This document shows, piece after piece, positions 2,159 through 54,630 of a DNA stretch of 60,721 nucleotides (the first letter of the stretch is position 1; every line of letters begins with the position of its first letter). The notes beneath the pieces are model-generated. The model made no database searches and was not told the origin of the DNA. It was given only the letters and a program-made list of their open reading frames with translations. A program made the position numbers and the translations under genes. This DNA is from a virus (lineage: Duplodnaviria > Caudoviricetes). Where the stretch lies: the IMG/VR virus record IMGVR_UViG_3300042503_002233, positions 1-60,721 of that record. One strand, 5' to 3'.

Positions 2159-2168
2159 TGTGTATACT
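2159..2168 (+). promoter_or_regulatory. Candidate promoter motif TGTGTATACT upstream of the sheath gene
   Basis: Intergenic; contains the -10-like TATACT; the same 10-mer recurs at 50407-50416 and 54588-54597. Confidence 0.4.
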
Positions 2169-41233: not shown

Positions 41234-41707
41234 ATGGCCAAAATCAAAAGAACCCTAGACATCAAAAAGCCAGACAAAACTCCGCCCTTTGTAATGGCCG
41301 AACCAAATGACGACGCGGCAGCTTTTGGCTGGTCACTCGATAAACTGCGTTACCCGTCAAAGGATTCAAAGAAAGGCGACGTATGGCCCGGGCCGTCTGT
41401 TTTTGAAATCGAAGAGGGAGTCGAGCTTCGGAACGCTTACGGCTTCGATATCAACTTCATCAACGCGAAGTTTGTCCAAGTGCTGCTGGATAACAGCGCG
41501 AAAGTAAGAGCCGCCGCTGAAAAATGCGCCGCGGCAAAATACAGCGAAGAAGCCCGCGCTGATCTTAAGCGCATCATCATGGCTGAATTCAGAGACACAG
41601 TGCTCCCCGAGATTCTTGCGCGATTCAAAAAAATCTCCGGGCTGGTGGCAGATTTTTATGCCGCCAGAATAGCGCACTTAATGACGTACGGCGTAGAAGA
41701 GGACTAG
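41234..41707 (+). CDS. Hypothetical protein
   Basis: 157-aa ORF; its TAG shares CTAG with the stop of the convergent gene. Confidence 0.6.
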   Translation: MAKIKRTLDIKKPDKTPPFVMAEPNDDAAAFGWSLDKLRYPSKDSKKGDVWPGPSVFEIEEGVELRNAYGFDINFINAKFVQVLLDNSAKVRAAAEKCAAAKYSEEARADLKRIIMAEFRDTVLPEILARFKKISGLVADFYAARIAHLMTYGVEED

Positions 41708-41979
41708 ATCGACGCCAGCACAATGAAGTCGCGGCGGTAGCCGGCGATCGGCCCGCGCTTGCCCATCAGCAGTTCGTCGTCTGTCTTGCCGTCGGCGTCA
41801 ACGGGGTACGGACCGCCCATGTTGGATACGCCGGGCTTGTTGAACCCAAGCTCTGCTGCTTTTTTCACGACAAGGTGCGCGGTAGACGCGTCCAGCAGTT
41901 CTTCGATATTATTGCCGGCGACAACGAAATCGGCCCGGTTGATGGTAACCTTCGAAAGCTCGTCAAGGATAGAAATCAT
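41704..41979 (-). CDS. Hypothetical protein (91 aa)
   Basis: MISILDELSKV... start at CAT 41977-41979 with GGAG upstream on the minus strand; protein-like sequence. Confidence 0.6.
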   Translation of the reverse strand: MISILDELSKVTINRADFVVAGNNIEELLDASTAHLVVKKAAELGFNKPGVSNMGGPYPVDADGKTDDELLMGKRGPIAGYRRDFIVLASI

Positions 41980-42577
41980 GGAAATCTCCGCTGAGGGGAA
42001 AAAGCTGACGTTTGGTATGGTAACCCGTGCGTTGAAATTGAGCAAGTTGCAAATCAGGGCTCTTTTTCTAACGGTTTTACGGGAGCCCATGCCGGCAGAA
42101 GACGAGTCACTTAACGACAAGTTTCTCGTGACGCTCGTTTTTGCAGAACTGCTGGAGAAGATAGCCTTCCTGCTGCCCGAGCAACGCACCGCGATTATGA
42201 CAGAAATATGGATCGCCCTTTTTAACACACCGGCTTTTGAAACGCAGTTTAATCAGATTGTGTTCATCGACAGTCAGGTCACAACATGGACCGGTGCGAC
42301 GGGTTTTTTAGACCTGCAAACAGGCGAATGGATTTCTGAGCTACCGCATCCGGCTATGGAGACAATCGGTTACAATTTAAACGAACTGTACCGTCGCGAA
42401 AAATTGCGTATTGAGAAAAGGAGCGGGTTTCATGTCAAAAAACATAATGCAGGAGGCGTGGACGAGCCGGGAGACATTCGCCTCAGTCTTGCTGACGATG
42501 TTCATCGACCGCTTCGGCTTGGAGGCCCTGACGTGGGACCCGACGACGATCTCGATGGAAGTCGAGGAGGAATTTGA
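41978..42577 (+). CDS. Hypothetical protein
   Basis: Likely start MEISAEG at 41978 (AAGGA upstream); alternative starts at 42017 or 42088. Confidence 0.5.
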   Translation: MEISAEGKKLTFGMVTRALKLSKLQIRALFLTVLREPMPAEDESLNDKFLVTLVFAELLEKIAFLLPEQRTAIMTEIWIALFNTPAFETQFNQIVFIDSQVTTWTGATGFLDLQTGEWISELPHPAMETIGYNLNELYRREKLRIEKRSGFHVKKHNAGGVDEPGDIRLSLADDVHRPLRLGGPDVGPDDDLDGSRGGI

Positions 42578-43103
42578 CGTCGACCTGCCGCAACTAGCGC
42601 TCGACAAATTGATGGTGTCGATTCAATTGCTCACCACAAATCGGTTCTACAAGAGCCTCCCTGATTTCATTTCATTCTGCAACGTACTGTCCGGCGACCC
42701 CTACCGGCCAGACATGTGGGACCCCGCAGACGCCGAAGAGGTCGCGTGGGGCGTCACAGAAGCGCTCCTCGTCGAACCGCCCGAAGATCAAGACCCAGAA
42801 CCATTTACGGACGAAATTCGAGCCTACATCGGCGCCGTGCTAGACTCAGAAGGGCTGGTTAATCCGCCTGACATTTTGCGGATAGCCCTGCGACAAGCTA
42901 GAGTGTCCCCGTCGATCGGAGATTTTTCTGACGATCCTATGATGTTCAACGCCGTATATGATCTAGAAGAAGGCAAACGGCAAGACATCGAACAGTCTAT
43001 TCGCCTCAAAACAAAACTGCTTGTGGCGCAACTCCGCGCCCTAAATCTCAAAAACGGCTCTGCAGAACAAGTGGCGCAGATGCTTGAAGCCGCTGCAGGC
43101 TGA
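42432..43103 (+). CDS. Hypothetical acidic protein
   Basis: MSKNIMQEAW..., AAGGAG RBS upstream of 42432. Confidence 0.65.
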   Translation: MSKNIMQEAWTSRETFASVLLTMFIDRFGLEALTWDPTTISMEVEEEFDVDLPQLALDKLMVSIQLLTTNRFYKSLPDFISFCNVLSGDPYRPDMWDPADAEEVAWGVTEALLVEPPEDQDPEPFTDEIRAYIGAVLDSEGLVNPPDILRIALRQARVSPSIGDFSDDPMMFNAVYDLEEGKRQDIEQSIRLKTKLLVAQLRALNLKNGSAEQVAQMLEAAAG

Positions 43104-43114
43104 AGGGCAACAAC

Positions 43115-43339
43115 GTGTTAGTGCTCTCGCGTAAAAAAGACGAAGACATCCTCATTCAAACACCAGAGGGTCGCGTCGTGACGATTCGTGTTGTCGAAAT
43201 TGTAGGCGATAAAGTGCGCCTCGGATTCGAGGCAGAGAAATGCGTGTCGATTGTGCGCACAGAACTTATATCACCCAAAGAGGTTAAACATGGGCTGGAA
43301 CGACCGGCTAATGGAGGACCCTTACATCCCGCCCCCTGA
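43115..43339 (+). CDS. csrA: Carbon storage regulator CsrA/RsmA-family RNA-binding protein
   Basis: MLVLSRKKDEDILI...TIRVVEIVGDKVRLGFEA...SIVRTEL matches the CsrA consensus. Confidence 0.9.
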   Translation: MLVLSRKKDEDILIQTPEGRVVTIRVVEIVGDKVRLGFEAEKCVSIVRTELISPKEVKHGLERPANGGPLHPAP

Positions 43340-43577
43340 GTATTATCGCGCCCGCGATGAATATGAAATGTGGCTGGAGTACGTCGAAGCGCGACTAAAC
43401 GAAGAAAAAGGTTTAACGTCGCAGAATCTTGACCCCCTAACGCTAACCACACCAACTAATGGCCAAAACACAGACCAAGTCGAAAAAGAAAACCGTATCG
43501 AAGAAAAAGACCGGCAGTTTCGAATTCAGGGCGTTGAAGCCAACGCCGAAGAAAGAGCTACGGAACTCCCATTTTAA
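43290..43577 (+). CDS. Hypothetical protein
   Basis: MGWNDRL... with GAGG RBS; overlaps both neighbours. Confidence 0.45.
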   Translation: MGWNDRLMEDPYIPPPEYYRARDEYEMWLEYVEARLNEEKGLTSQNLDPLTLTTPTNGQNTDQVEKENRIEEKDRQFRIQGVEANAEERATELPF

Positions 43578-43731
43578 AGAACTTTACACGGCGCTTGACC
43601 TGCTCGACGCCGTGGCGACAAGCGATAACATGGACGACTTACCGACTGGAGAGCTAGCGTTTTACGCCAGCACGCTCAACCATATGGCGATTGCTCTAAA
43701 GTTCCGGCTTGACGATTTGACCGGCAAGTAA
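43459..43731 (+). CDS. Hypothetical protein with Lys-rich N-terminus
   Basis: 90-aa ORF. Confidence 0.5.
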   Translation: MAKTQTKSKKKTVSKKKTGSFEFRALKPTPKKELRNSHFKELYTALDLLDAVATSDNMDDLPTGELAFYASTLNHMAIALKFRLDDLTGK

Positions 43732-43760
43732 AAAAAAAACACCCGGCATCATGCCGGGTG
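43730..43760 (-). terminator. Rho-independent terminator for the minus-strand gene 43957..45135
   Basis: CACCCGGCA-TCA-TGCCGGGTG hairpin (43740-43760) next to A10 on the + strand, which is a U-tract on the minus strand. Confidence 0.75.
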
Positions 43761-43956
43761 CCGCAATCCAATCCTTGGGTTGCTAAATGCTGTCCTTGCA
43801 ATTTACTTGGCTGGCGACCCGACCATATGCCGTCGCCGCCGTTCCTTGCCGCGCGGAATAATGTACTGACGCGCAAAAAAGCGTCAATGCCAAAAAAAAA
43901 ACAGCCGACCGCAAACGCGATCGGCTGCTAGGGACGACCCTGCCGGGACGCCAAAA

Positions 43957-45135
43957 CTACTCTGCTTGATTGGCCAGTTCAAACAGCTTTTCCATCGGCA
44001 GAAGACTTTCGGCCGCCTTTGTTCGCACAACTGCCGCCATCTTGTTTTCCTGCATAAGCCGATCAAGAGAAGCCGCCATTCCGCGGTCGAGTGTGGGCAC
44101 AATCGCGGCAAGCTTGTCGCGATCGAGGTACACGCCGCCGGCGCTCACCGCCTCTGCAAAGTCGTCGCCCAGCCAATTACGCACGTCGTCGAGCGCCAGT
44201 TTTTCCAGATCGGCGAGCGCGTATACGTTGCCGGTAGTCGTCTCGACATTTGACGACATAAAATCTCGGGCCACCTTCTCGGTAACGGCAAACAGCACCT
44301 CTTCAGCGCGCGGTAGCCCGCCGGCGTCATACAGCCGATAAAGATGATTGACGCGGTCAAACTCGTCGACCGCCGCGGCCAGCTTAACACGCGTTTCTTG
44401 AGCTCGCGCGTTATCCGGGTTCTGCTCCAGCGCGGTCGCCAGCTTGAGCATTTCCAGCGACGCGGGCTGGTTGCTGCGCTGCACGAGCCTAGCGCGATCG
44501 CGCAGCATCTCAGCCGCTACCTTCGTGGCGCAGGCGCCGTATCCGGCTGTCAGCGCCAGCATGTGCTCGTGCTCGGAAATGTCAGCATTATGGGCGGCCG
44601 CTTTCTGGAGAATCTTATCAGCAATTGTGTGTCGGTCCTCGAACACAAATTCGTCGCGCCACTTAGAGAAGCCGTGGGCAGCGTACTTAACCTCGGTGGC
44701 GTTTCGCATAGGCCAGTGCCGCTCTTTGACGCCATCGCCGCCGACCCAGACAATCGCAAAGTGCTCGTCGCCGAGATTGGCGGCGGCATCTTCGCCGGCG
44801 GAGGCCACTTTAGCCTCCATCTCTTGGACGGCGCCGAGAATGCCGAAAAACTTGGCCGCGGCGTGAATCCGGGTCTGAATCTCTGATGCGCTCTTTTCGT
44901 TAAACTCTGCCTGCTTGTCGGCAAAAAACAAAGCTGACAGCCAAGTTGCAGGAGCGGTATGACAAGGATAGAGTTTATTGCGCTGATCCGCGTACATGTG
45001 CCGCTGAAGTGTTTCGTCGCCATGTGTCCGCTCATGCGAGGCAGACTTTACAAAATCGGGATTGCTAAAAAGCGACAAAAGGCGGTGCGTTTCGCGACCG
45101 CTGATATCCTGTGTTTGGTCGAGCGGAGTTGTCAT
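43957..45135 (-). CDS. Hypothetical protein, possibly head/packaging associated; two internal repeats
   Basis: 392 aa; GAGG RBS; two similar segments 'LYPCHT..ATWLS..FF.....F......I..RI..AA' and 'HWPMRN..EVKYA...F.....F....R..I..KI...AA' (DUF6582-like by recall). Confidence 0.7.
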   Translation of the reverse strand: MTTPLDQTQDISGRETHRLLSLFSNPDFVKSASHERTHGDETLQRHMYADQRNKLYPCHTAPATWLSALFFADKQAEFNEKSASEIQTRIHAAAKFFGILGAVQEMEAKVASAGEDAAANLGDEHFAIVWVGGDGVKERHWPMRNATEVKYAAHGFSKWRDEFVFEDRHTIADKILQKAAAHNADISEHEHMLALTAGYGACATKVAAEMLRDRARLVQRSNQPASLEMLKLATALEQNPDNARAQETRVKLAAAVDEFDRVNHLYRLYDAGGLPRAEEVLFAVTEKVARDFMSSNVETTTGNVYALADLEKLALDDVRNWLGDDFAEAVSAGGVYLDRDKLAAIVPTLDRGMAASLDRLMQENKMAAVVRTKAAESLLPMEKLFELANQAE

Positions 45136-47746
45136 GAGTCTTCCTACCTCTTTAGTGCGCCGACATGATCATCTGCGCGCCCTGTCGGCATTAGGGCTGT
45201 CGCTCGAAAAACCCGCGTTCCCGGCTATTTTACAGTGCCCTCGTTGCGGTCAATATACGCTGCAGTTATTCGATGATTTGTTTACTGATGGTATTTGGTT
45301 GAACTGTCAAAGTTGTTCTATGCACGGAGATATCATAATCTTCGGCGCGGAACTATGGAAGTTAAGTTTACCAAATACGCTGACAAAATTCAGCGAAATG
45401 GGCCTGATTGCCGAAAACGACGCTGACCGCGTTTTAGGCGACTATGAGCGGTATTTTAACCGCAGAACCGCCGTAGAAAACTTCCTGTTTGACGCCATGT
45501 CGCAGGTTTGGAACCACGGCGACGACGTAATTGCGTGTCGACTCAGGGATTTGGGTGTACGCCATGAGATAGAAAATTGCTACGGATTACTTGGAGTTGC
45601 CCATTATGACCAGATTGCGAAAGTTTGTTTGGAAGTGGGGCGACCAAAGCCGCCCCGACTACGAGACGATGGCCCCAGTATTGTATTTCCTTTTTATGAC
45701 CTCCCGGGGCGATTAACCGGAGTTTTATTACTGCAGTACAACGAGGCGTACGAATCTAAACAGACGTATGTCCCCCTCTCCGGCGCTAGAAAACAAAGAC
45801 CAGAAGCGGGCTATTATCTGCTGTCTGCCGCATGGCGCGCTAAACAACCAACATTTAAAAACACGCAGTTTATTTTCGATGATCCGCTGTGGGTTGTAAA
45901 AGCGCAGTGTCAAGCGTTTGCCCGTCAACAAGGCTGGCTGCCGATTATGGCCAGCTACACCGGGCCAGAAGCAGAAAGTTACGGAACAAGCTGGCAGTCG
46001 TTCGGGCACGCAGACCGCATATTTCACGGACACAGCCCGACGCCAGAATTAATCAGCCGGGCATGCAACGCCAAAGGCTACATATCTGTCGTGCACAACA
46101 GCCGAGTAAGCGTGTTTCCAAAATTGTCGACGATCAGAACGAATGTGCAAACGTGGCAACAGGCGCTACGCAATACACTCGCCGGCGCAAACGAAATGAA
46201 TGCCGAGGCGTTTGCGAAGCGCCTTACCATCGCGCCCGATAAGCTGCAGGGCTTTTTGACAAAAGTATCTGCGCTATTCTCGCCGGGCTTTCAAGAGCGA
46301 GTCATGCTGGCCGCCACAGCGCCCGCAGACGCGCCGCTTAAAGTGCAGCGCCGCTGGTTTGTAGTCGAACGCGACAGCGGCTGGTGGAGTCAAAGCGGCC
46401 GCCAGATCGCAAATTTTCGCGTCAGCATTGACGAAGTCATTCACGCGGATAACGGTGAGAAAACATACAAAGGCCGCGTCTTCATGGGCGGCGACGTCTA
46501 CGCTTTTACGGAGTCGTCAAAACGTATCGAACACGGCGGCCTGCTCACCTACGCTGACGGCCTGCTGTCGCACAACGGCAAATTAGCCGTGTTCGATTGG
46601 ATGTGGAACAAAAAAGCACATTTGCTTGCCATGCACCTTCACCCGCCGAAACTTATAAATGTTTCAACTGAGTACGGCTGGGACGCACAAGCCAACGTGT
46701 TCAGATTTGCGGGCTACGAGCTTACGCATAACGGGGACGTCACAAAAACACACGTGTGGCCAAAACAGCCAAAAAACAAAGAGTTCCAAGAACCGCTGCC
46801 GATCGCCCCGCTACCGATTCATGACATCATTACGCCGGCGCATGAAAACTCGTTTATATGGGCGACTGCCGCAACGATTCTTGCAAATCTTATCGCCCCC
46901 ATTGCGCGAAAAGATTACGTAGCCACCGCAATCCCTCCGCGCATGTTTTCACTCGTAGCACGAATCGCGGCCGCAATGGGCTGCGACGTTGAAAAAACAA
47001 TGGCGTTCCAAAAACACGTCGCGGGCAAGTTCCTAGAAACAAAAACAGCCGACGCCATATGGCCAGTTGCGTGCTTTGGCGCGTTTAACGACGAGGTTTT
47101 CGGTCATTGTGTGCCTCGTTGTTTCAACAGACCGCTGCTGCTTAAAGTAACAAAACAAAACACGGCTGTTGCACTTAGTTACGGCTGGCAGAGTTTAAGC
47201 AGCGCACCATTCAACGCCGACGCCGATATCAGTCCGCTACGAGCAATTGTTCCGGCCTACATACAACGCGCACTCAAAACGAGAGCCAACTTTTTCAGAG
47301 CGGAAAGTAGTCTTCATGCGCGCGTACTCGAAGATTTAAACACATGGCTCACCGAGACCTACGGCATGTCATTTAATCTGCCGCACGCCAAGACGCTGAG
47401 CCAGTATCCGTCGCACGCCCACGCCGCGCTTATGGCCGAGATAAACGACGCAATTTTGGCCGGGAAAATAGCCGTTTTGCCGCAACCGCGCACAAGCAAA
47501 CAAGCCAAAAACTATATTTTGGTCAAAAAAGACTGCTGGTGGTTGAATCAACAGGCCATAGATCGTTATTTTTATACTGCCCGTTGCGTAGGCCCGAACT
47601 GGTTGATGATTATAGAGTTACTGCAAAAAGACGGTGTTTACGTGGGCGAAGAAGTCGTACAAAATATGTCGGGCGTTCTTGTTAAATCAAATTGGTGCGA
47701 AAGGTTTCACGCAACTCCAAGCATACTGCGAACAGAAATCGGTTAA
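45134..47746 (+). CDS. Primase-like protein (Zn finger + DnaG-like core) with a large C-terminal domain
   Basis: Start MSLPTS at 45134 after GGAG; CPRC..NCQSC..HGDII Zn finger; 'SIVFPFYDLPGRLTGV' resembles DnaG 'RIIFPI.D..GRV.GF'. Confidence 0.55.
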   Translation: MSLPTSLVRRHDHLRALSALGLSLEKPAFPAILQCPRCGQYTLQLFDDLFTDGIWLNCQSCSMHGDIIIFGAELWKLSLPNTLTKFSEMGLIAENDADRVLGDYERYFNRRTAVENFLFDAMSQVWNHGDDVIACRLRDLGVRHEIENCYGLLGVAHYDQIAKVCLEVGRPKPPRLRDDGPSIVFPFYDLPGRLTGVLLLQYNEAYESKQTYVPLSGARKQRPEAGYYLLSAAWRAKQPTFKNTQFIFDDPLWVVKAQCQAFARQQGWLPIMASYTGPEAESYGTSWQSFGHADRIFHGHSPTPELISRACNAKGYISVVHNSRVSVFPKLSTIRTNVQTWQQALRNTLAGANEMNAEAFAKRLTIAPDKLQGFLTKVSALFSPGFQERVMLAATAPADAPLKVQRRWFVVERDSGWWSQSGRQIANFRVSIDEVIHADNGEKTYKGRVFMGGDVYAFTESSKRIEHGGLLTYADGLLSHNGKLAVFDWMWNKKAHLLAMHLHPPKLINVSTEYGWDAQANVFRFAGYELTHNGDVTKTHVWPKQPKNKEFQEPLPIAPLPIHDIITPAHENSFIWATAATILANLIAPIARKDYVATAIPPRMFSLVARIAAAMGCDVEKTMAFQKHVAGKFLETKTADAIWPVACFGAFNDEVFGHCVPRCFNRPLLLKVTKQNTAVALSYGWQSLSSAPFNADADISPLRAIVPAYIQRALKTRANFFRAESSLHARVLEDLNTWLTETYGMSFNLPHAKTLSQYPSHAHAALMAEINDAILAGKIAVLPQPRTSKQAKNYILVKKDCWWLNQQAIDRYFYTARCVGPNWLMIIELLQKDGVYVGEEVVQNMSGVLVKSNWCERFHATPSILRTEIG

Positions 47747-47748
47747 TC

Positions 47749-48114
<366 letters not shown>

Positions 48115-48582
48115 ATGCAAACATTTCTGCCCCTCCCTAGTTTTAAGGAGTCGGCGAAGTGCCTAGACAACAAGCGGCTTGGAAAACAGCGGCTTGAGTG
48201 CAAACAAATTTTGCTGTGCCTCGGCGTGCCAATCGGCAAGCACCGACCGGGAAAACGAGGGTGGCGACATCATCCAGCCGTACTGATGTGGGCTGGACAC
48301 GAAGTTGCCCTTTTGGTATACGGAATCGTCGTTTGTCGCGAATGGAAATCGCGTGGGTTTCAAGACCAGCTAGAAGCCGAGTTCGTAAAGGCATACCGCC
48401 GGCTTCGACCAACCATTCCGGCCAACCGCTATCCAGAGTGGTTTGGCGACGAGACGTTTCATGCGAGCCACCGCAGCAATCTGTTGCGCAAAGATTTTTG
48501 GCACTACTCCCGTCTTGGTTGGCGGGACCCGACCGACTTGCCCTACATCTGGCCCACGCAAATAGCGCAGGCCGCACTATGA
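48115..48582 (+). CDS. MSMEG_6728-family / pyrimidine-dimer DNA glycosylase (EndoV-like) protein
   Basis: MQTFLP..F..SA..LD.KRLGKQR.E..QIL...HPAVLMW.G...HASHRSNLLRKD...Y.WP signature. Confidence 0.8.
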   Translation: MQTFLPLPSFKESAKCLDNKRLGKQRLECKQILLCLGVPIGKHRPGKRGWRHHPAVLMWAGHEVALLVYGIVVCREWKSRGFQDQLEAEFVKAYRRLRPTIPANRYPEWFGDETFHASHRSNLLRKDFWHYSRLGWRDPTDLPYIWPTQIAQAAL

Positions 48583-48869
48583 AAAAATACAAAACCAGAC
48601 AAGCCCGCGTACTTGTAGACATCCTCTGCGACGTGTGTGGCAAAAGCTGCAAAAATGACAACTACTACGCCGACGATACGTTGCTGCGCGAAGACGCCGA
48701 TTTTGAATACGGCACTGTTAGCGCAACGTGGGGTTATTTTAGCTGCAAGGACGGAGAGAGCTATTCCACCGTTTTGTGCGAGAGTTGTTTTGACGACGTA
48801 GTCAAACACATTGAGGCACTAAAAACGCAAAGACGCGAGAGCGAAAACAATGCAAGAGAAAACACTTAA
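48579..48869 (+). CDS. Small Zn-binding protein
   Basis: ATGA overlap; CDVCGK...WGY.S.KDGE.....LCESCF. Confidence 0.65.
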   Translation: MKKYKTRQARVLVDILCDVCGKSCKNDNYYADDTLLREDADFEYGTVSATWGYFSCKDGESYSTVLCESCFDDVVKHIEALKTQRRESENNARENT

Positions 48870-50328
48870 AATTCTTGTTGCCGTACTTCGTGTGTTTATT
48901 GGCTCGGCGGATCGCGGAAATCCGATCACGCTGCACGAACACGAAGTTGTAAGTCAGGTATGCCGCGGCATGCACAAGCGAAAAGAAAAGGAAGTAAAGA
49001 ACATGCGTGGCCTGATCGTATTCGCTATACGGTCGCTCAAAGGCGGCTGTGTGCTTTACGAGGCTATCGACAGTTGGTCGGACGATAAATTGAAGCGCCC
49101 AAAGTCGTTGTCAGAAAAGAAGTTGTTCGGCCTAACCGACAAAGCGCTGACGTATGTCGCGGAGCATCAGATCGCCGGCGTTAACACGCAGAGCAATCAA
49201 TTTTTGCTCGATATGCTGCGGGCAGAGGAGTTTGAAATTCTGCCGAAAAACCAAATCCCGATTACAGTTGATAGTGCGCCAGAGGCGCTTGTAAAAACCG
49301 TTACCGCAATAAAACAAGAACAAAAACAGGAGATCGCTATCGTGCCAGATCGCAGCCAGCCTGCCCGCCCGGAGACGGCGCACAATGTTCAGCGCCTTGT
49401 TGTTACCGTCCGCAACAAAAGCAAAGAATGGCTCGGTCAGAGCACCCCCGCCGATTTGCTGGGCGGTCTGTCCGAACAATATTTTGCCACCGAAGGCGCA
49501 GATACAGCGGTCGGAAGCGCGGTCAAGCTGGGCTGGCCTGAAAGACGCCGCGCGATGTACAAGGAAGCCGTTCGTTTCTTAAAGTCGCACGGCCTTGTCG
49601 AAGATTTCGACACACGACGGGACCCCTACACCGGCGCTACGAGAGCTTACGGCGTTAAACTGACGAATCTTGGTCTTGAGGTCGCCGTCGCCGGCGAATT
49701 CAAAGACGAGCGCCCGCAATCCGAACGGAAGGTCGATGCGCCAACTGCTGCAGAGAAACTCACACCCACAGGAAGCCCCATGCTTAAGGGACACAAGAAG
49801 CCCGACGAGACGCCTGCGGCGGCCAACGACCAACTGGCCGCTGTGCTCGCACAAATGCAAAAAATGCGCGAGGAAATCACTGCGCTACGCGCCGAACGAG
49901 AGGTAGCCGCAGCCGGCGCCCTGATCGCCTCGTCGTCGCCGCCAGAGCCGACTTACTATAACGATCGCGCCACCATGGCTGTAGTATTAAAGGGCGCGGT
50001 GGCCGCGTTAATTCAGACGTTTTCGTGTCTGCTCGACGATAAAGCGCAGACTATCAACGCAACCGGGCTGTACCTCAGCCTGACTGAATTTGAAAAGGCT
50101 GTGCTCGGCATCAAGGGCTACGTAAGCGAGTGCATTCGCGACGAGTCGCCTGTTGACCTAGAATTGCTGCAACAGTACGCCGCAGACTATACAGCCGCGG
50201 CAGATATGTTGGAGACCAAATCGACGCTCCCAATCGTGGCCGAAAAAATCGTTACAAAGCGATCGCTGGCGGGTGACAACGCCATCCGTCGACAGATTTG
50301 GCGTCGCGATCGGGCGGCACGGGTGTAG
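48850..50328 (+). CDS. Hypothetical protein (possible winged-helix and coiled coil)
   Basis: 492-aa ORF. Confidence 0.6.
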   Translation: MQEKTLKILVAVLRVFIGSADRGNPITLHEHEVVSQVCRGMHKRKEKEVKNMRGLIVFAIRSLKGGCVLYEAIDSWSDDKLKRPKSLSEKKLFGLTDKALTYVAEHQIAGVNTQSNQFLLDMLRAEEFEILPKNQIPITVDSAPEALVKTVTAIKQEQKQEIAIVPDRSQPARPETAHNVQRLVVTVRNKSKEWLGQSTPADLLGGLSEQYFATEGADTAVGSAVKLGWPERRRAMYKEAVRFLKSHGLVEDFDTRRDPYTGATRAYGVKLTNLGLEVAVAGEFKDERPQSERKVDAPTAAEKLTPTGSPMLKGHKKPDETPAAANDQLAAVLAQMQKMREEITALRAEREVAAAGALIASSSPPEPTYYNDRATMAVVLKGAVAALIQTFSCLLDDKAQTINATGLYLSLTEFEKAVLGIKGYVSECIRDESPVDLELLQQYAADYTAAADMLETKSTLPIVAEKIVTKRSLAGDNAIRRQIWRRDRAARV

Positions 50329-50334
50329 TGTCAG

Positions 50335-50407
50335 GCCAGCGTAGCTCAGTTGGTAGAGCAGCAGTTTTGTAAACTGCGGGTCGCCGGTTCGAGCCCGGCC
50401 GCTGGCT
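50335..50407 (+). tRNA. tRNA-Thr(UGU), CCA not encoded
   Basis: Acceptor GCCAGCG/CGCTGGC; D arm GCTC-AGTTGGTA-GAGC; anticodon arm GCAGT-TT-TGT-AA-ACTGC; T arm GCCGG-TTCGAGC-CCGGC. Confidence 0.95.
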
Positions 50408-50441
50408 GTGTATACTCCGTACGGCCAAGGAGGGCCAAAAC

Positions 50442-50897
50442 ATGGAGTTTGTTATTCGTATCAAAGATATCAATAAGCTCGGGCTGGTCGATGTTACCGC
50501 GATCTATACGCGCTTGTCTCGGCCTGACTCGATCAGCGGCAGTTCCATACAAAAAGAACTAGAAAAGCGGTATCTCGCTAAAGATGCTTCGACCGAGCAG
50601 CAGCCAAAAATGGCAATAGCAATTATTTGGCTGGACGACACACTTGTCGGGTGGGTCGGCACGCGCCCGTGGCCGGAAAAATTTAAAGGCAAACCGGTCA
50701 CTGCGCAGACAATCGAATGTTTTGTCGACCCAGAATTTCGCCGCCGCGGGATCGCAAAATTAGGCGTGCAGGCGCTCATCGCGGCCAATGCACTCGACAA
50801 AAACGAATTAGTGTCAGTGTACGCGCCGGAGGTTGTTGAATTAGCCCGTCGCTGCGGCTGCAAAATAGTCGTCTACTGCAAAACAGAAGGTGCGTGA
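50442..50897 (+). CDS. GNAT-family acetyltransferase
   Basis: Motif A 'FVDPEFRRRGIAK'; GGAGG RBS. Confidence 0.8.
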   Translation: MEFVIRIKDINKLGLVDVTAIYTRLSRPDSISGSSIQKELEKRYLAKDASTEQQPKMAIAIIWLDDTLVGWVGTRPWPEKFKGKPVTAQTIECFVDPEFRRRGIAKLGVQALIAANALDKNELVSVYAPEVVELARRCGCKIVVYCKTEGA

Positions 50898-50900
50898 CTT

Positions 50901-51170
50901 ATGAAACGTTACCACGAAGAAAAACACATTATTGAAAGCCGCGTAAAAAAGAACCGGCAATTGAACATCAGTTGGCAAGAGTTTGGAAGCTGGCGGGATC
51001 AAAGCAGCTTTCAGGTGGACGCCGGAAAATACCGCAAAACATTACGTTGTTCTGGTTGCACGCGCGCTCGTTGTCAGGTGTGCCACCCAGAAAAATATCC
51101 AAAACGAAAACCGACCAGACAAGAACTTCAAGCAAAAAAGGAACTTAACAGATATGACCAAGACCGCTGA
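50901..51170 (+). CDS. Small basic Cys-rich protein
   Basis: CSGCTRARCQVCHPEK motif. Confidence 0.55.
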   Translation: MKRYHEEKHIIESRVKKNRQLNISWQEFGSWRDQSSFQVDAGKYRKTLRCSGCTRARCQVCHPEKYPKRKPTRQELQAKKELNRYDQDR

Positions 51171-51480
51171 CTCCCTCATCCACGACATCGAAACCACCGC
51201 GCAGTCTCTCGCTGACGCCGTCACGGCTGAGCAGTCGCTCGAAGATAACCGCATCAACGCCAAGCTTGCTGCAATCGACCGCATCATGTCGCGCGGCGAT
51301 AATCAGTTTACCGGCAAGCCGCATTCTTTCTCGTCTGCCGAGGCAATCGTCAATACGGACGAAGATTATCAAACGTATCTTGAAAATCTGCGGCTCGCTG
51401 TCCGCCAACGCATTCTCGCCAAGGGCAACTACGATGCAGCCGTAGCAGCCGCCCGCCTTGGAGCCATTCCGGTTGTTTGA
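51154..51480 (+). CDS. Hypothetical helical protein
   Basis: MTKTADSLIHD..., AAGGA upstream. Confidence 0.6.
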   Translation: MTKTADSLIHDIETTAQSLADAVTAEQSLEDNRINAKLAAIDRIMSRGDNQFTGKPHSFSSAEAIVNTDEDYQTYLENLRLAVRQRILAKGNYDAAVAAARLGAIPVV

Positions 51481-51943
51481 CGAAGACTTCAACGATACCG
51501 CTGGCCGTTACGAGCTAAGCTCTATGCCGGCTATTCGAGAAGCGGCGCTGATCATGTACGGCCGGTTCATCGCTCATATGTATAAGCGAGAGCCGGACGA
51601 CGACGCCGCGGCAAAAGCTACGCAGCATCTCTCGCTGCAAGAGACAGAGAACATTGTCCGCGAGCACGCCTCCGTCGATGGCGAACTTTATGCCATCGGC
51701 GGCGATACAGCAGAAGAAGCAAAAGAACGTATTAATGGGTTGATGTTTGCGCTCATGGACCGCGTTATGTCAAACGTGATCGCAGAAGGCGTAAAACAAG
51801 ATTTACTCGACTGCAACTACGACGCAACGAAAAACGATTTTGCGTTTTCAGTCACAGACAAAGGTAAGCAAATTGTCGAAAACCTCAGAAAAGCCCGCCA
51901 CGACGCTGATCGACCAGATATTCCAAGAGATCAAGAATTTTGA
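51458..51943 (+). CDS. Hypothetical protein
   Basis: 161-aa ORF; start uncertain (TTG). Confidence 0.55.
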   Translation: MEPFRLFDEDFNDTAGRYELSSMPAIREAALIMYGRFIAHMYKREPDDDAAAKATQHLSLQETENIVREHASVDGELYAIGGDTAEEAKERINGLMFALMDRVMSNVIAEGVKQDLLDCNYDATKNDFAFSVTDKGKQIVENLRKARHDADRPDIPRDQEF

Positions 51944-52223
51944 AGCTCTTTGCTCGACGCTAAAGGACTATGGCGCCCGCGATTCAGAACCTGACGGCGT
52001 ATTCCAGCGTATTGTCAATTCCGCGTCGATGGGTGGGCAGCCCAGCATCCCGCGGTCCGGGCAAGGCTGGGAGCTTCTTACCCACAGCATGGACTGCGAG
52101 GCCGCCGCGGAAAAAATGCACGACCACGCCCTCAAAGTTGTACGCCTCATCGAAACCTGCCCTGTAAAAGATTTTGAGCGGCTTCGGCACCGTATTAAAG
52201 ACTATTGCTGGAGGCTATACTAA
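51840..52223 (+). CDS. Hypothetical protein
   Basis: 127-aa ORF; start uncertain; stop overlaps the next ATG (TAATG). Confidence 0.45.
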   Translation: MRFQSQTKVSKLSKTSEKPATTLIDQIFQEIKNFEALCSTLKDYGARDSEPDGVFQRIVNSASMGGQPSIPRSGQGWELLTHSMDCEAAAEKMHDHALKVVRLIETCPVKDFERLRHRIKDYCWRLY

Positions 52224-52456
52224 TGCGTATGGCATTTCACGGCAAAAAAGGCGACCGGGTCAAAATGGTATTTATGCCAAACGACCCAGAACCGATACCG
52301 GAAGGTACAGAGGGCACCGTTACCGACGTGCAGCACCTTGACTGGGGCCAAGATAAATTTTCACAGGTCGCGGTAGACTGGGACAACGGCAGACGCCTTA
52401 GTTGTGTTTGTCCGCCGGACCACGTAGTAATTATCGGCTCTGCGGCGGCTCAGTAA
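52223..52456 (+). CDS. DUF4314-like protein
   Basis: 'GDRV..V.M.NDP.PIP.GT.GTV..V.......V.WDNG..L......D.V' signature. Confidence 0.75.
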   Translation: MRMAFHGKKGDRVKMVFMPNDPEPIPEGTEGTVTDVQHLDWGQDKFSQVAVDWDNGRRLSCVCPPDHVVIIGSAAAQ

Positions 52457-54375
52457 CCAGAAAAATACTGCCCGCCGATGGCGTCATCAGCCCAGTCAAT
52501 ATCGCGCTCGGCTGCCTGTTGCCGCTCGGTGATTCGGCCGATGCCGGCGATCTGCGCAAAATTAGGCCACGCCTGATTTATGTGCCACAGCGATGTCGCC
52601 CCGAGATTGACCGCCTGCGCAAAGTCATCGCTAAGCAGCGTGTTTCTTGTGATGGTATAGATGTCGCCACCGAGGCGAGACTCCGCCTTGTTTTCTACCA
52701 ACGCCAAAAAGTCTGCAACCAGCCCCGGCGCGTCCTGTGACGACCAGTCGTACTGGAAAAAGCGAAGCTGCTTCATTTTGATCGCCTGACAGGTGTACAA
52801 CAGCGATCGCGTCTTATCGAGGCTGTAATGCTGCCTATGATTAATTTCTGTCGGCGGTTTGAAAACCATCAAGTCCTGCGACGCTGACCGGACAAGGCGA
52901 ACGGCCATGACGCGATCAAGATTAAAACCTGCTTGCACCATCACCGTCTCGCGAACCGTTCCCGCACCTGTGTAATCGTGCGCCACAAAATCGCATTTAA
53001 ATTTGTTACACCACTTCATGCACTCGACAGCTTCCTGCAGGTGATCGCCGCCGATCAGCAACCGCTTTCCCCATAAAACGTCAATTCGACCGTCAGGTAA
53101 AAAACCCATGACGGCGACCGCGGTAAAGCTCACGCCGGCCTCACCGCCACCGCCCCAGTCGATCGCCAGCACGCGATGCTTGTAGTTAAACAGCGACGCA
53201 TAAGACGCGGGTTCTGGCTCCTTTTTGTTTTCCCACGGCAAAACACACGCGCCTTTGAGGTCTGTTTCGCTGACAAGCTTTTGCCCTGTGTCGATGCTTT
53301 CGCCCATGACTTCGTTGTAAAACTGCGCTTGGGTCATATTCCCAAAGCCCTCGCGTTTTAGCAACAACGTGGACCATTTCTCAGCGTCGGAAAAGTGAAG
53401 CGGTAAAATGATCTGGGGCACGTGATAACCAGCAAATTGCCAGCGCCGTTCGGGATACCGGTGCACCCATCGTCCGTGCCGTGGACTAATAGGCTTCTGA
53501 CATTTTGCGCAAACAGTTCCGGGGTACTTCTCGCTGATGTGCGGAGTCCACGGGCCTATCATTGCGTCAAGGTCGTACTCAAGCGACGGGATGTTCCATT
53601 TCCCGCACGAGTGACACGGAATAAACCACTCGGCCTGTGACGAGCGTTTATACAAACCGTAAATTAAATTGTCGAAAGTTTTTGGCGTTCCTGTGAAATA
53701 CATGGTCGCCCATTTACTATACGACATCGTTTCTTGAATAATGGGCACGTGATCCGGGTCCATGTCTTGCACTTCGTCAATGCACACGCGGTCAGCAGAC
53801 ACACCGCGAACACGGTCCGCGTCGAGTTGCGCGAAAGAAAACAACATCATTGAGTTGTTTTTAAACGAGCGTTGCAGCACAGAGTTTTCTGTCGACGTGC
53901 CGGACCACAGCGCCTTCACGGGCGATTGATCAATAAACGGCCGCACATAGTTGTTAGAAAAGCGTCGAATCTGTTCGTACAACGGCGTGATAAATAACGT
54001 CTTGAAGAACGGAATAGAATTCGCCACAACTACGCCATGCGCCGCAAGGCTTGTCGATTTTGAAACCTGCCGCCCAGTACACCACACCTGATTCTTCGGT
54101 GTCAGGCATCTGAAAAGTGGTGAAAATGTGTAGTGATTCTGGAGAGTATATGGCTTTCCGTTTAGATTCAACACAAGCGGCAAAATCGGCTCAAGCGAAG
54201 GAAAAACACTTTGTCGTGCAAGAGCACCTAACACGCCCATGCGTGCTTGCATTGACTTATAATCTTTGGTGTCGATAGACGCCAATTCTTCCAGCAGGGA
54301 ACGAATGCCGCTGTTCGGCAGTTCAATTCCTGCTTTGTTATTCGCAGGCGCGTCCTGCGTACTATTAGGTGCCAT
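52450..54375 (-). CDS. terL: Terminase large subunit (GpA-like, with Zn-binding insert)
   Basis: Walker A 'TGRQVSKST', Walker B 'VCIDEVQD', motif III 'FTGTPK', CHSC...CAKC Zn site, nuclease 'LAIDWGGG' and 'DDFAQA'; start chosen at CAT 54373-54375. Confidence 0.9.
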   Translation of the reverse strand: MAPNSTQDAPANNKAGIELPNSGIRSLLEELASIDTKDYKSMQARMGVLGALARQSVFPSLEPILPLVLNLNGKPYTLQNHYTFSPLFRCLTPKNQVWCTGRQVSKSTSLAAHGVVVANSIPFFKTLFITPLYEQIRRFSNNYVRPFIDQSPVKALWSGTSTENSVLQRSFKNNSMMLFSFAQLDADRVRGVSADRVCIDEVQDMDPDHVPIIQETMSYSKWATMYFTGTPKTFDNLIYGLYKRSSQAEWFIPCHSCGKWNIPSLEYDLDAMIGPWTPHISEKYPGTVCAKCQKPISPRHGRWVHRYPERRWQFAGYHVPQIILPLHFSDAEKWSTLLLKREGFGNMTQAQFYNEVMGESIDTGQKLVSETDLKGACVLPWENKKEPEPASYASLFNYKHRVLAIDWGGGGEAGVSFTAVAVMGFLPDGRIDVLWGKRLLIGGDHLQEAVECMKWCNKFKCDFVAHDYTGAGTVRETVMVQAGFNLDRVMAVRLVRSASQDLMVFKPPTEINHRQHYSLDKTRSLLYTCQAIKMKQLRFFQYDWSSQDAPGLVADFLALVENKAESRLGGDIYTITRNTLLSDDFAQAVNLGATSLWHINQAWPNFAQIAGIGRITERQQAAERDIDWADDAIGGQYFSGY

Positions 54376-54567
54376 ATGCGTGACTACTATTCTGCGCCGG
54401 GGTTGCGCCCCGAACAAAACCAAAACGAAGACGAACCAGAACTGCAGTGGCTTGAAGACAGCATAAACTACTTGGTGACAACTACGTTTATCTGTATCGG
54501 GTTAATTTGCAAGGCCGTTTTCACAGGAATTGTTCTGGCTTACGAGGGGCTGCGTAAACAGCCCTGA
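54376..54567 (+). CDS. Small protein with hydrophobic C-terminus
   Basis: 63-aa ORF; ATG abuts the terminase start (CATATG). Confidence 0.4.
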   Translation: MRDYYSAPGLRPEQNQNEDEPELQWLEDSINYLVTTTFICIGLICKAVFTGIVLAYEGLRKQP

Positions 54568-54630
54568 TAGTTCCGGCTAGCAAGCAATGTGTATACTAGG
54601 CAGTATACCGTTGTTTGAAAGGAGTGACAC

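Follow-up and report, generated by a model that had tools for sequence, protein, structure and literature searches.

Three reversed genes of a freshwater phage begin head to head with forward genes, with no promoter gap between the start codons

The window analyzed here, 60,721 bases long, is the whole of a viral record (IMG/VR IMGVR_UViG_3300042503_002233; Duplodnaviria, Caudoviricetes) with a completeness rating of approximately 30%. Three genes on its minus strand, which encode the large terminase TerL and proteins of 392 and 91 amino acids (aa), each start back to back with a plus-strand gene, encoding 63, 870 and 199 aa, respectively. No non-coding DNA separates the paired start codons, which share the sequence CATG at two of the junctions and abut within CATATG at the third (Table 1). 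The original prediction, made from the letters of the window, had placed these three motifs exactly where we find them and had stressed the absence of a promoter gap; gene calls and homologs from related phages bore out both the back-to-back layout and the missing gap. We suggest, with a probability of about 0.5, that these are nested reversed units whose expression signals lie in the coding sequence of their partners, that forward transcription would read through them, and that the two genes of each pair would damp each other.

The layout breaks a rule: a divergent pair would be expected to share a promoter gap, and no kind of gene overlap is rarer than the head-to-head one. It is kept without a gap, and with an essential gene among its members, across relatives whose proteins are at about 40-60% identity, and is thus more general than the original prediction knew.

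Reversed units within a forward gene array

The parent genome is that of a tailed phage of about 200 kb with nearly all genes in one direction, of which the window represents approximately 30%. Contigs carrying relatives of the 392-aa protein or of TerL measure 120-205 kb, and three relatives with terminal repeats (198-205 kb) are rated 100% complete. Genes for the tail sheath, baseplate and fibers occupy bases 1-40,000 of the window. DNA of this phage occurs in 11 runs, all of them DNA metagenomes from lake water or a lagoon. Sequenced phage isolates included no close relative, as judged by megablast and tblastn searches of the phage collection with the 870-aa gene, which returned nothing. 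The best isolate relatives of TerL are 24-32% identical to it, and in the nearest of these, Salmonella phage Arash (31.7%), TerL is not a nested reversed gene. The phage family is common: homologs of the 392-aa protein form 384 clusters, and the contigs that carry them reach about 209 kb.

Genes were called with a codon-usage caller trained on the window, which was also run on a complete relative, G003 (198,312 bases), whose TerL is 89% identical to that of the window. Six of the 59 calls in the window are on the minus strand. Three of them, with scores of 31.7-85.7, are the 91-aa gene, the 392-aa gene and TerL; the remaining three are short, score 5.2-8.7, begin with GTG or TTG, have no Shine-Dalgarno (SD) sequence and are regarded as noise. 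The caller returned 253 genes for G003, 19 of them on the minority strand. Five of the 19 score above 25, namely TerL, the homolog of the 392-aa gene, a 122-aa gene behind it, the homolog of the 91-aa gene and a 153-aa open reading frame (ORF) located at the end of the genome and facing the terminal region, and the other 14 score 3.1-13.2. Since only these five exceed 25, the 91-aa, 392-aa and TerL units are the only well-scoring reversed units inside the G003 gene array, where they fall within 11 kb and have junction spacings of 0, -2 and -2. In both genomes these three reversed units sit between forward genes. The 47 same-strand gaps of the window have a median of 10 nucleotides (nt), with 28 of at most 20 nt, 15 longer than 60 nt and eight of zero or less; under this distribution the chance that all three divergent gaps would be zero or less is about 0.005. 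Several of the gaps longer than 60 nt contain GTATACT, which resembles a promoter element of the forward strand.

Start codons shared by the 392-aa and 870-aa genes

The original prediction had named, as a result that would refute it, an alignment of homologs placing the true starts tens of codons further in. At the junction of the 392-aa and 870-aa genes no such shift was seen, and CATG was kept in all 20 related loci. Both starts are fixed by nearby in-frame stops and by the absence of alternative starts: in 18 of the 20 loci an in-frame stop precedes the junction ATG of the 870-aa gene by 5-9 codons, with no other start in between in 17, and the 392-aa frame offers no alternative start in its next 40 codons in 16. 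The two ribosome-binding sites (RBSs) that had been claimed for this pair are present, each inside the partner gene, as GGAG on the plus strand and GAGG..AGGAAG on the minus strand. In the more distant loci the 870-aa gene has a weaker SD, GGAA or GGGA, one codon farther away. Synonymous divergence over codons 1-8 of the 870-aa gene is 0.26 against a gene mean of 0.57, which places this stretch in the lowest 1% of 823 windows.

Two strong minus-strand terminators lie 3' of the 392-aa gene, one listed in Table 1 and one at 43738-43762, and strong minus-strand terminators occur only there. The same scan found no plus-strand terminator ahead of the 392-aa gene. At the 3' ends of the other two reversed genes, the 91-aa gene overlaps the preceding forward gene by 4 nt and TerL does so by 7 nt. 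Forward read-through into the reversed genes thus appears unobstructed, with the missing forward terminator and these 3' overlaps as indirect support.

The 870-aa gene had been labeled primase-like, a label that the searches did not support. Pfam, PHROGs and PDB sequences gave no hit to the catalytic domain of a primase, and the protein has no match of any kind above the cut-off in these collections or in NCBIfam, where a zinc-ribbon match fell below the cut-off. The label is unverified and rests on nothing beyond a zinc-ribbon-like CxxC..CxxC stretch. For the 392-aa protein, no informative name was found among the 120 listed of its 384 homolog clusters, and its AF2 (AlphaFold2) model has a mean pLDDT (predicted local distance difference test) score of 60.

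Several other features of this pair were noted. All 17 distinct sequences of the 870-aa gene have an unchanged GATATCATA in codons 66-68 (45329-45337, plus strand). The invariance covers three synonymous sites, including a rare-looking ATA codon, and neighboring conserved residues vary freely at the third codon position. Read on the minus strand it contains TATGAT, a -10-like sequence about 195 nt upstream of the 392-aa gene. As a recurring motif GATATCATA was rejected, with a single occurrence in the window. A patch of low synonymous divergence (0.35 versus a mean of 0.53; lowest 0.5% of 385 windows) covers codons 52-56 of the 392-aa gene at 44980-45000 on the minus strand, which on the 870-aa strand is approximately 155-170 nt upstream of the 870-aa start. 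A hairpin at the junction, with a 7-bp stem in the window, did not convince: compared with the controls of each sequence, the target fold ranked among the lowest 10% in just 4 of 17 sequences for one strand and in 1 of 17 for the opposite strand.

TerL and its 63-aa partner

The third reversed gene encodes a gpA-like large terminase, as indicated by matches to PHROG 675 (E value 3e-57) and PF05876 (E value 6e-14; 52.8 bits against a cut-off of 25.6). Its start, about which the original prediction was most doubtful, is fixed by the homologs. Among 52 distinct junction sequences, window included, 30 have CATATG and 18 have CATG. Of the remaining four, two are ambiguous, one shows a 4-nt gap, and one can be read with a TTG start (1-nt overlap) or with an ATG start (11-nt gap). 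An ORF homologous to the 63-aa gene abuts TerL or overlaps it by 1 or 2 nt in 49 of the 52, and in 13 loci the junction ATG is the sole in-frame start upstream of the conserved region of TerL. The partner is taken to be a real gene, with a conserved motif of the ELQWLED type and variable flanks.

No SD was found for TerL in either the CATATG or the CATG class. The SD of the 63-aa gene is made by the second and third codons of TerL, and TerL positions +5 to +8 are nearly invariant in 30 distinct sequences (C 1.00, A 0.97, C 0.93, C 1.00). On the other side of the junction, the 30 CATATG-class sequences have nATAnT at -13 to -8 of TerL (A 0.77, T 0.83, A 0.83, T 0.97), a -10-like element within the codons of the 63-aa gene. 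In the 18 CATG-class sequences it lies 2 nt closer to the TerL ATG, its position being fixed relative to codons 3-4 of the 63-aa gene. Past the 63-aa gene, the first true intergenic gap carries GTATACT on the forward strand in 47 of the 52 junctions. In 26 of them the motif is also on the TerL strand, where its median distance from the downstream TerL ATG is 213 nt. TerL thus has two weak promoter candidates, nATAnT near its ATG and the palindromic GTATACT about 215 nt upstream.

The 5' end of TerL also encodes a conserved hairpin. Of 28 distinct CATATG-class sequences, 24 have a perfect stem of at least 5 bp (5-7 bp) at TerL +17 to +21, and a comparable stem was found in 18% of 784 control windows of the same genes. 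About ten different stem sequences occur with matching partners, and the amino acids of TerL codons 6-11 vary freely. The hairpin ends 16 nt before the 63-aa ATG and is followed by a T-rich stretch. It was not found in the 18 CATG-class sequences, in which a stem was present in 28% compared to 16% of controls. RNAalifold on a MAFFT alignment predicted no pairs, because the arms of the hairpin are out of register in the alignment; the stems were scored sequence by sequence.

The 91-aa and 199-aa genes

Four of the 20 related loci end before the remaining junction, so that 16 could be compared. An SD for the 91-aa gene, GGAGG, lies 6-8 nt 5' of its ATG in the 16 loci and reads GGAG in the window. 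The partner was not called by the codon-usage caller. Even so, all 15 distinct sequences, which are 35-79% identical, keep the frame open over 155-199 codons, and we take the frame to be real, since noise would not remain open across sequences so diverged. The homologs vary in length, from 155 to 199 codons, and in the window the end of the 199-aa ORF (42411-42577, plus strand) overlaps the next, well-conserved 224-aa ORF by about 150 nt in another frame.

Conservation within codons 14-23 of the 199-aa gene places a candidate promoter for the 91-aa gene there. TTGCTN and TACCAT are each present in 14 of the 15 distinct sequences, and none of the 15 has an indel in the spacer. The fifteenth sequence encodes other amino acids at this point of the partner and yet has TAGACT, which fits TAnnnT, at the same position. 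A T-rich leader of about 30 nt and then GGAGG follow 3' of TACCAT. For the 199-aa gene, codons 1-24 show a synonymous divergence of 0.13-0.41, compared to 0.5-0.7 deeper in the gene. Transcription from this candidate is predicted to start near 42010, giving a leader of about 31 nt that would be antisense to the start region of the 199-aa gene. A consensus scan also found a weak candidate promoter for the 199-aa gene inside the 91-aa gene, which is only partly conserved among relatives. The two candidates would face each other and overlap by about 90 nt. CATAAT, 220 nt upstream of the 91-aa gene, was ruled out as a promoter element since it is not conserved.

Table 1. Features at the three head-to-head junctions (positions in the window; a point marks features listed without a strand)
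Feature	Position	Strand	Remarks
Reversed gene 1, 91 aa	41704..41979	-	caller score 31.7; homologs 63-90% identical in 16 loci
CTAG, overlapping stops of a 157-aa plus-strand gene and the 91-aa gene	41704..41707	.	
Weak candidate promoter of 199-aa gene, in 91-aa gene	41883..41912	+	TAGACG, 18 nt, TATTAT; consensus scan
Junction 1, CATG common to 91-aa and 199-aa starts	41977..41980	.	window and 8/16 loci
Partner gene 1, 199 aa, fast-evolving	41978..42577	+	homologous frame open in 15/15 distinct sequences
Candidate promoter of 91-aa gene, in 199-aa gene	42017..42045	-	-35 TTGCTC 42045-42040, 17-nt spacer, -10 TACCAT 42022-42017
Intrinsic terminator, 27 nt past the 392-aa stop	43900..43929	-	13-pair stem, T-run
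Reversed gene 2, 392 aa, mostly helical	43957..45135	-	62-86% identical in 20 loci
SD of 870-aa gene, GGAG (codons 3-4 of 392-aa gene)	45125..45128	+	
Junction 2, CATG common to 392-aa and 870-aa starts	45133..45136	.	20/20 loci
Partner gene 2, 870 aa, N-terminal CxxC..CxxC stretch	45134..47746	+	
SD region of 392-aa gene (codons 3-6 of 870-aa gene)	45140..45150	-	
Reversed gene 3, large terminase TerL, 641 aa, no SD	52450..54375	-	PHROG 675, PF05876
Conserved hairpin, 6-bp stem, 5-nt loop, TerL codons 6-11	54343..54359	.	
SD of 63-aa gene, AGGTG (TerL codons 2-3)	54367..54371	+	
Junction 3, CATATG, TerL start abuts 63-aa start	54373..54378	.	
Partner gene 3, 63 aa, small membrane protein, conserved E-L/F-Q-W-L/V-E-D motif	54376..54567	+	
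-10-like element upstream of TerL, in 63-aa codons 3-5	54383..54391	-	poor in the window itself
Palindromic promoter-like/hairpin element, first true intergenic gap beyond 63-aa gene	54588..54609	.	GTATACT + 54591-54597, - 54608-54602

A reading of the layout

Because the reversed and forward start codons overlap or touch, the SD of one gene is written in the first codons of the other; this holds for five of the six genes, with TerL the exception. With no gap at the 5' ends and with SDs inside the partner, promoters must lie inside coding sequence, and by geometry any mRNA that carries its SD must overlap the 5' end of its partner's transcript. In the reading that we favor, three reversed units are nested in a forward array with no non-coding DNA at their 5' ends. 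The reversed genes would fire from promoters within the partner gene, and the forward genes beyond each of them would be reached by antisense read-through of the reversed gene, as in a noncontiguous operon. The paired mRNAs would be complementary over both translation-start regions, polymerases on opposite strands would collide, and reversed gene and forward partner would damp each other via transcriptional interference and RNA duplex formation. The layout would be locked in, because an indel at a junction alters the distance from SD to ATG, and in the case of junctions 1 and 2 it does so for both genes. The original prediction had each transcript running antisense across the RBS of the other. 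The conserved promoter-like block in the partner speaks for this in the case of the 91-aa gene; at the other two junctions the overlap is a prediction from the geometry.

A bolder version, which we offer tentatively and think rather improbable, is that the start-fused pairs of this widespread family of freshwater jumbo phages are hard-wired toggles. With each RBS set in the first codons of the partner, transcribing one gene would unavoidably yield RNA antisense to the translation start of the other, and TerL and the other two reversed genes would be made only when forward transcription falls. The junctions would then act as a timing device without a dedicated regulator, of which the hairpin in the TerL codons could be a part.

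A number of points weigh against nested, mutually damping units. The antisense overlap is deduced from geometry. No motif or k-mer is common to the three reversed upstream regions, and no conserved -35/-10 pair occurs within 120 nt upstream of the 392-aa or the 870-aa gene. With only 7 of 12 positions in agreement with the E. coli consensus, the block proposed to drive the 91-aa gene is a candidate and no more; it also sits in the best-conserved part of the 199-aa protein, so that protein constraint accounts for part of its conservation. TerL, with no SD and a -10-like element near its ATG, could have a leaderless mRNA that escapes the overlap. The folding energies of the TerL hairpin favor each strand in 13 sequences, with 4 ties. 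Finally, function searches with the 91-, 199-, 392-, 870- and 63-aa proteins were blank or uninformative, and with TerL the sole gene of the six with a recognized function, antagonism between partners or the early/late logic of the original prediction is not arguable. A search of Rfam found no family at the junctions.

Alternative explanations

A serious rival, which is not exclusive of mutual damping and also counts against it, is a neutral frozen accident: ancient single-gene inversions would have fused the start codons, the layout would persist only because a change at the junction harms both genes together, and the junctions would have no regulatory role beyond a tolerated cost. We consider this possible, if doubtful. 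Genes are closely packed, with a median same-strand gap of 10 nt, no functional link between partners is known, and the TerL junction drifts narrowly among CATATG, CATG, a 1-nt overlap and a 4-nt gap, as a spacing constraint alone would allow. However, 15 of the 47 same-strand gaps exceed 60 nt, so space is not short, and all three well-scoring reversed units away from the G003 genome end share the layout. The promoter-like block and the covarying hairpin are extra conserved nucleotide elements at the junctions and also argue against pure lock-in. Overlapping transcripts are compatible with lock-in, which differs from our reading only on their use.

It is unlikely, in our judgment, that the reversed genes belong to one long minus-strand transcript, the classical excludon form, in which a bidirectional promoter in the palindromic element beyond the 63-aa gene would give TerL an mRNA leader of about 215 nt antisense to that gene and the RNA may continue antisense through 7 kb of forward genes to the terminators of the 392-aa gene. 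The palindrome does occupy the only intergenic gap nearby, with GTATACT on the TerL-sense strand in 26 of the 52 junctions, the strong minus-strand terminators come only after the 392-aa gene, and no promoter was found close to that gene. Yet only half of the relatives have the motif in the TerL direction versus 47 of 52 on the forward strand, TerL would have to combine a long leader with no SD, and Rho termination would threaten a long untranslated antisense RNA. Less probable again is back-to-back leaderless transcription, with each mRNA beginning at the A of its own ATG and thus neither overlap nor antisense effect. Only TerL, which has no SD and has nATAnT 7 nt before its ATG in the 30 CATATG-class sequences, fits such a scheme. 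Each of the other five genes has a conserved SD and hence requires a leader, no -10 element lies at the right distance before the 870-aa ATG, and in the CATG class the TerL element is 2 nt closer, tracking the 63-aa codons instead of the TerL ATG.

That the start calls are wrong, with the true starts further in and ordinary promoter gaps between them, seems to us very improbable. Half of the relatives lack an ATG at the aligned position of the first junction, a conserved ATG 13 codons in could start the 199-aa gene, and the codon-usage caller chose 45320 as the start of the 870-aa gene. In the 8 of the 16 loci that read ATA at the aligned 199-aa start codon, the candidate start is an ATG 4-5 codons upstream, present in all five loci examined and giving a 14-17-nt overlap, and the alternative is the conserved ATG 37 nt away, so that even the most generous reading leaves a gap of at most 37 nt. 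The second junction is fixed by in-frame stops and the absence of alternative starts, the junction ATG is the sole in-frame start of TerL in 13 loci, and N-terminal residues align from position 1. Callers and start heuristics that penalize such junctions would mis-set starts, as happened here for the 870-aa gene.

Known systems with related layouts

The term noncontiguous operon describes this layout better than does the classical excludon. In Staphylococcus phage 80alpha, direct RNA sequencing and rearranged mutants revealed two mutually exclusive expression states for nested antisense genes, and reciprocal control of noncontiguous operons by polymerase collision and antisense RNA has been proposed (PMC11087260, PMC11034616). 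The ith-1/tha-1 operon resembles our units in having one or more antisense genes nested among genes of the same direction. Its nested gene has its own promoter, whereas here there is only a promoter-like block for the 91-aa gene and weak candidates for TerL. Unlike in 80alpha, co-transcription across the nested genes is here a prediction, the nested genes include an essential packaging enzyme, and the 5' junctions are without intergenic DNA, the start codons overlapping or abutting. The genomes differ as well, ours being large, lytic-type and myovirus-like and 80alpha a temperate siphovirus. The absence of intergenic DNA, an essential gene among those nested and the deep conservation are new here and represent an extreme form of a known layout.

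Excludon pairs are defined by RNA-seq overlap, with a short intergenic distance typical, according to the ExcludonFinder account (PMC12288877). As in divergent excludons, our pairs are divergent neighbors whose 5' regions would be transcribed on both strands. In excludons as that account describes them the untranslated regions (UTRs) overlap, whereas here the overlap, predicted from sequence, would cover coding sequence and both RBSs. A survey of 58 prokaryotic genomes counted 331 divergent against 12,737 same-direction overlaps, only 57 of the divergent ones being shorter than 5 nt, and ascribed the shortage to the need for upstream signals (PMC2174442). Our junctions resemble its short divergent overlaps in that genes meet head to head over a few bases; unlike in the surveyed prokaryotes, the reversed genes here overlap in this way as a rule, and the phage family has retained the arrangement. 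Coliphages P2 and 186 have face-to-face promoter switches between lysis and lysogeny, with repressors and mapped transcripts, and the lambda cI mRNA is leaderless. The predicted promoters of the 91-aa and 199-aa genes, with their overlap of about 90 nt, would resemble the former, and TerL may be leaderless as is cI. Unlike in P2, 186 and lambda, no component of a repressor-type lysis/lysogeny switch was identified in this phage. A literature search found no description of start-fused divergent pairs in phages, which is no proof of absence. If the pairs do interfere with each other, theirs would be the most compact antisense control layout described and a portable design for mutually exclusive expression.

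Observations on neighboring sequences

The sequence TGTGTATACT has three copies in the window (2159-2168, 50407-50416 and 54588-54597), all on the plus strand, intergenic and 25-52 nt before a start codon. G003 has the motif 11 times in 198 kb, five of them intergenic on the majority strand. TGTGTATACT, with its core GTATACT, is probably the -10 element of forward operon promoters; it often lies within a hairpin, which may double as a terminator for the operon before it. The last bases of a tRNA-Thr gene (anticodon TGT; 50334-50408, plus strand) run into the second copy.

The region behind the 392-aa gene is variable. The additional 122-aa gene of G003 lies there on the same strand (155309-155677), and three related loci (L004, L005 and L010) have a candidate tRNA-like sequence just after the 392-aa gene. 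In the window, a candidate small RNA of about 115 nt (43735-43853, minus strand) lies between the terminators at 43900-43929 and 43738-43762, with a sigma-70-like promoter ahead of it (TTGACG, 16 nt, TACATT; 43887 to 43860) and a strong terminator after it. It has a fold z-score of -2.4 and no Rfam match. CAAGGA occurs in it three times and GGA once more, and one of these motifs falls in the loop of a predicted hairpin. The two closest loci (L002 and L003) have kept the candidate together with its promoter and terminator, and other relatives have other content at this position. About 400 nt away is a gene for a phage CsrA homolog (43115-43339, plus strand; PF02599, E value 2.5e-15, above the cut-off), which is kept in most of the related loci. 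Given this proximity, the candidate small RNA may be a CsrB/Rsm-like sponge.

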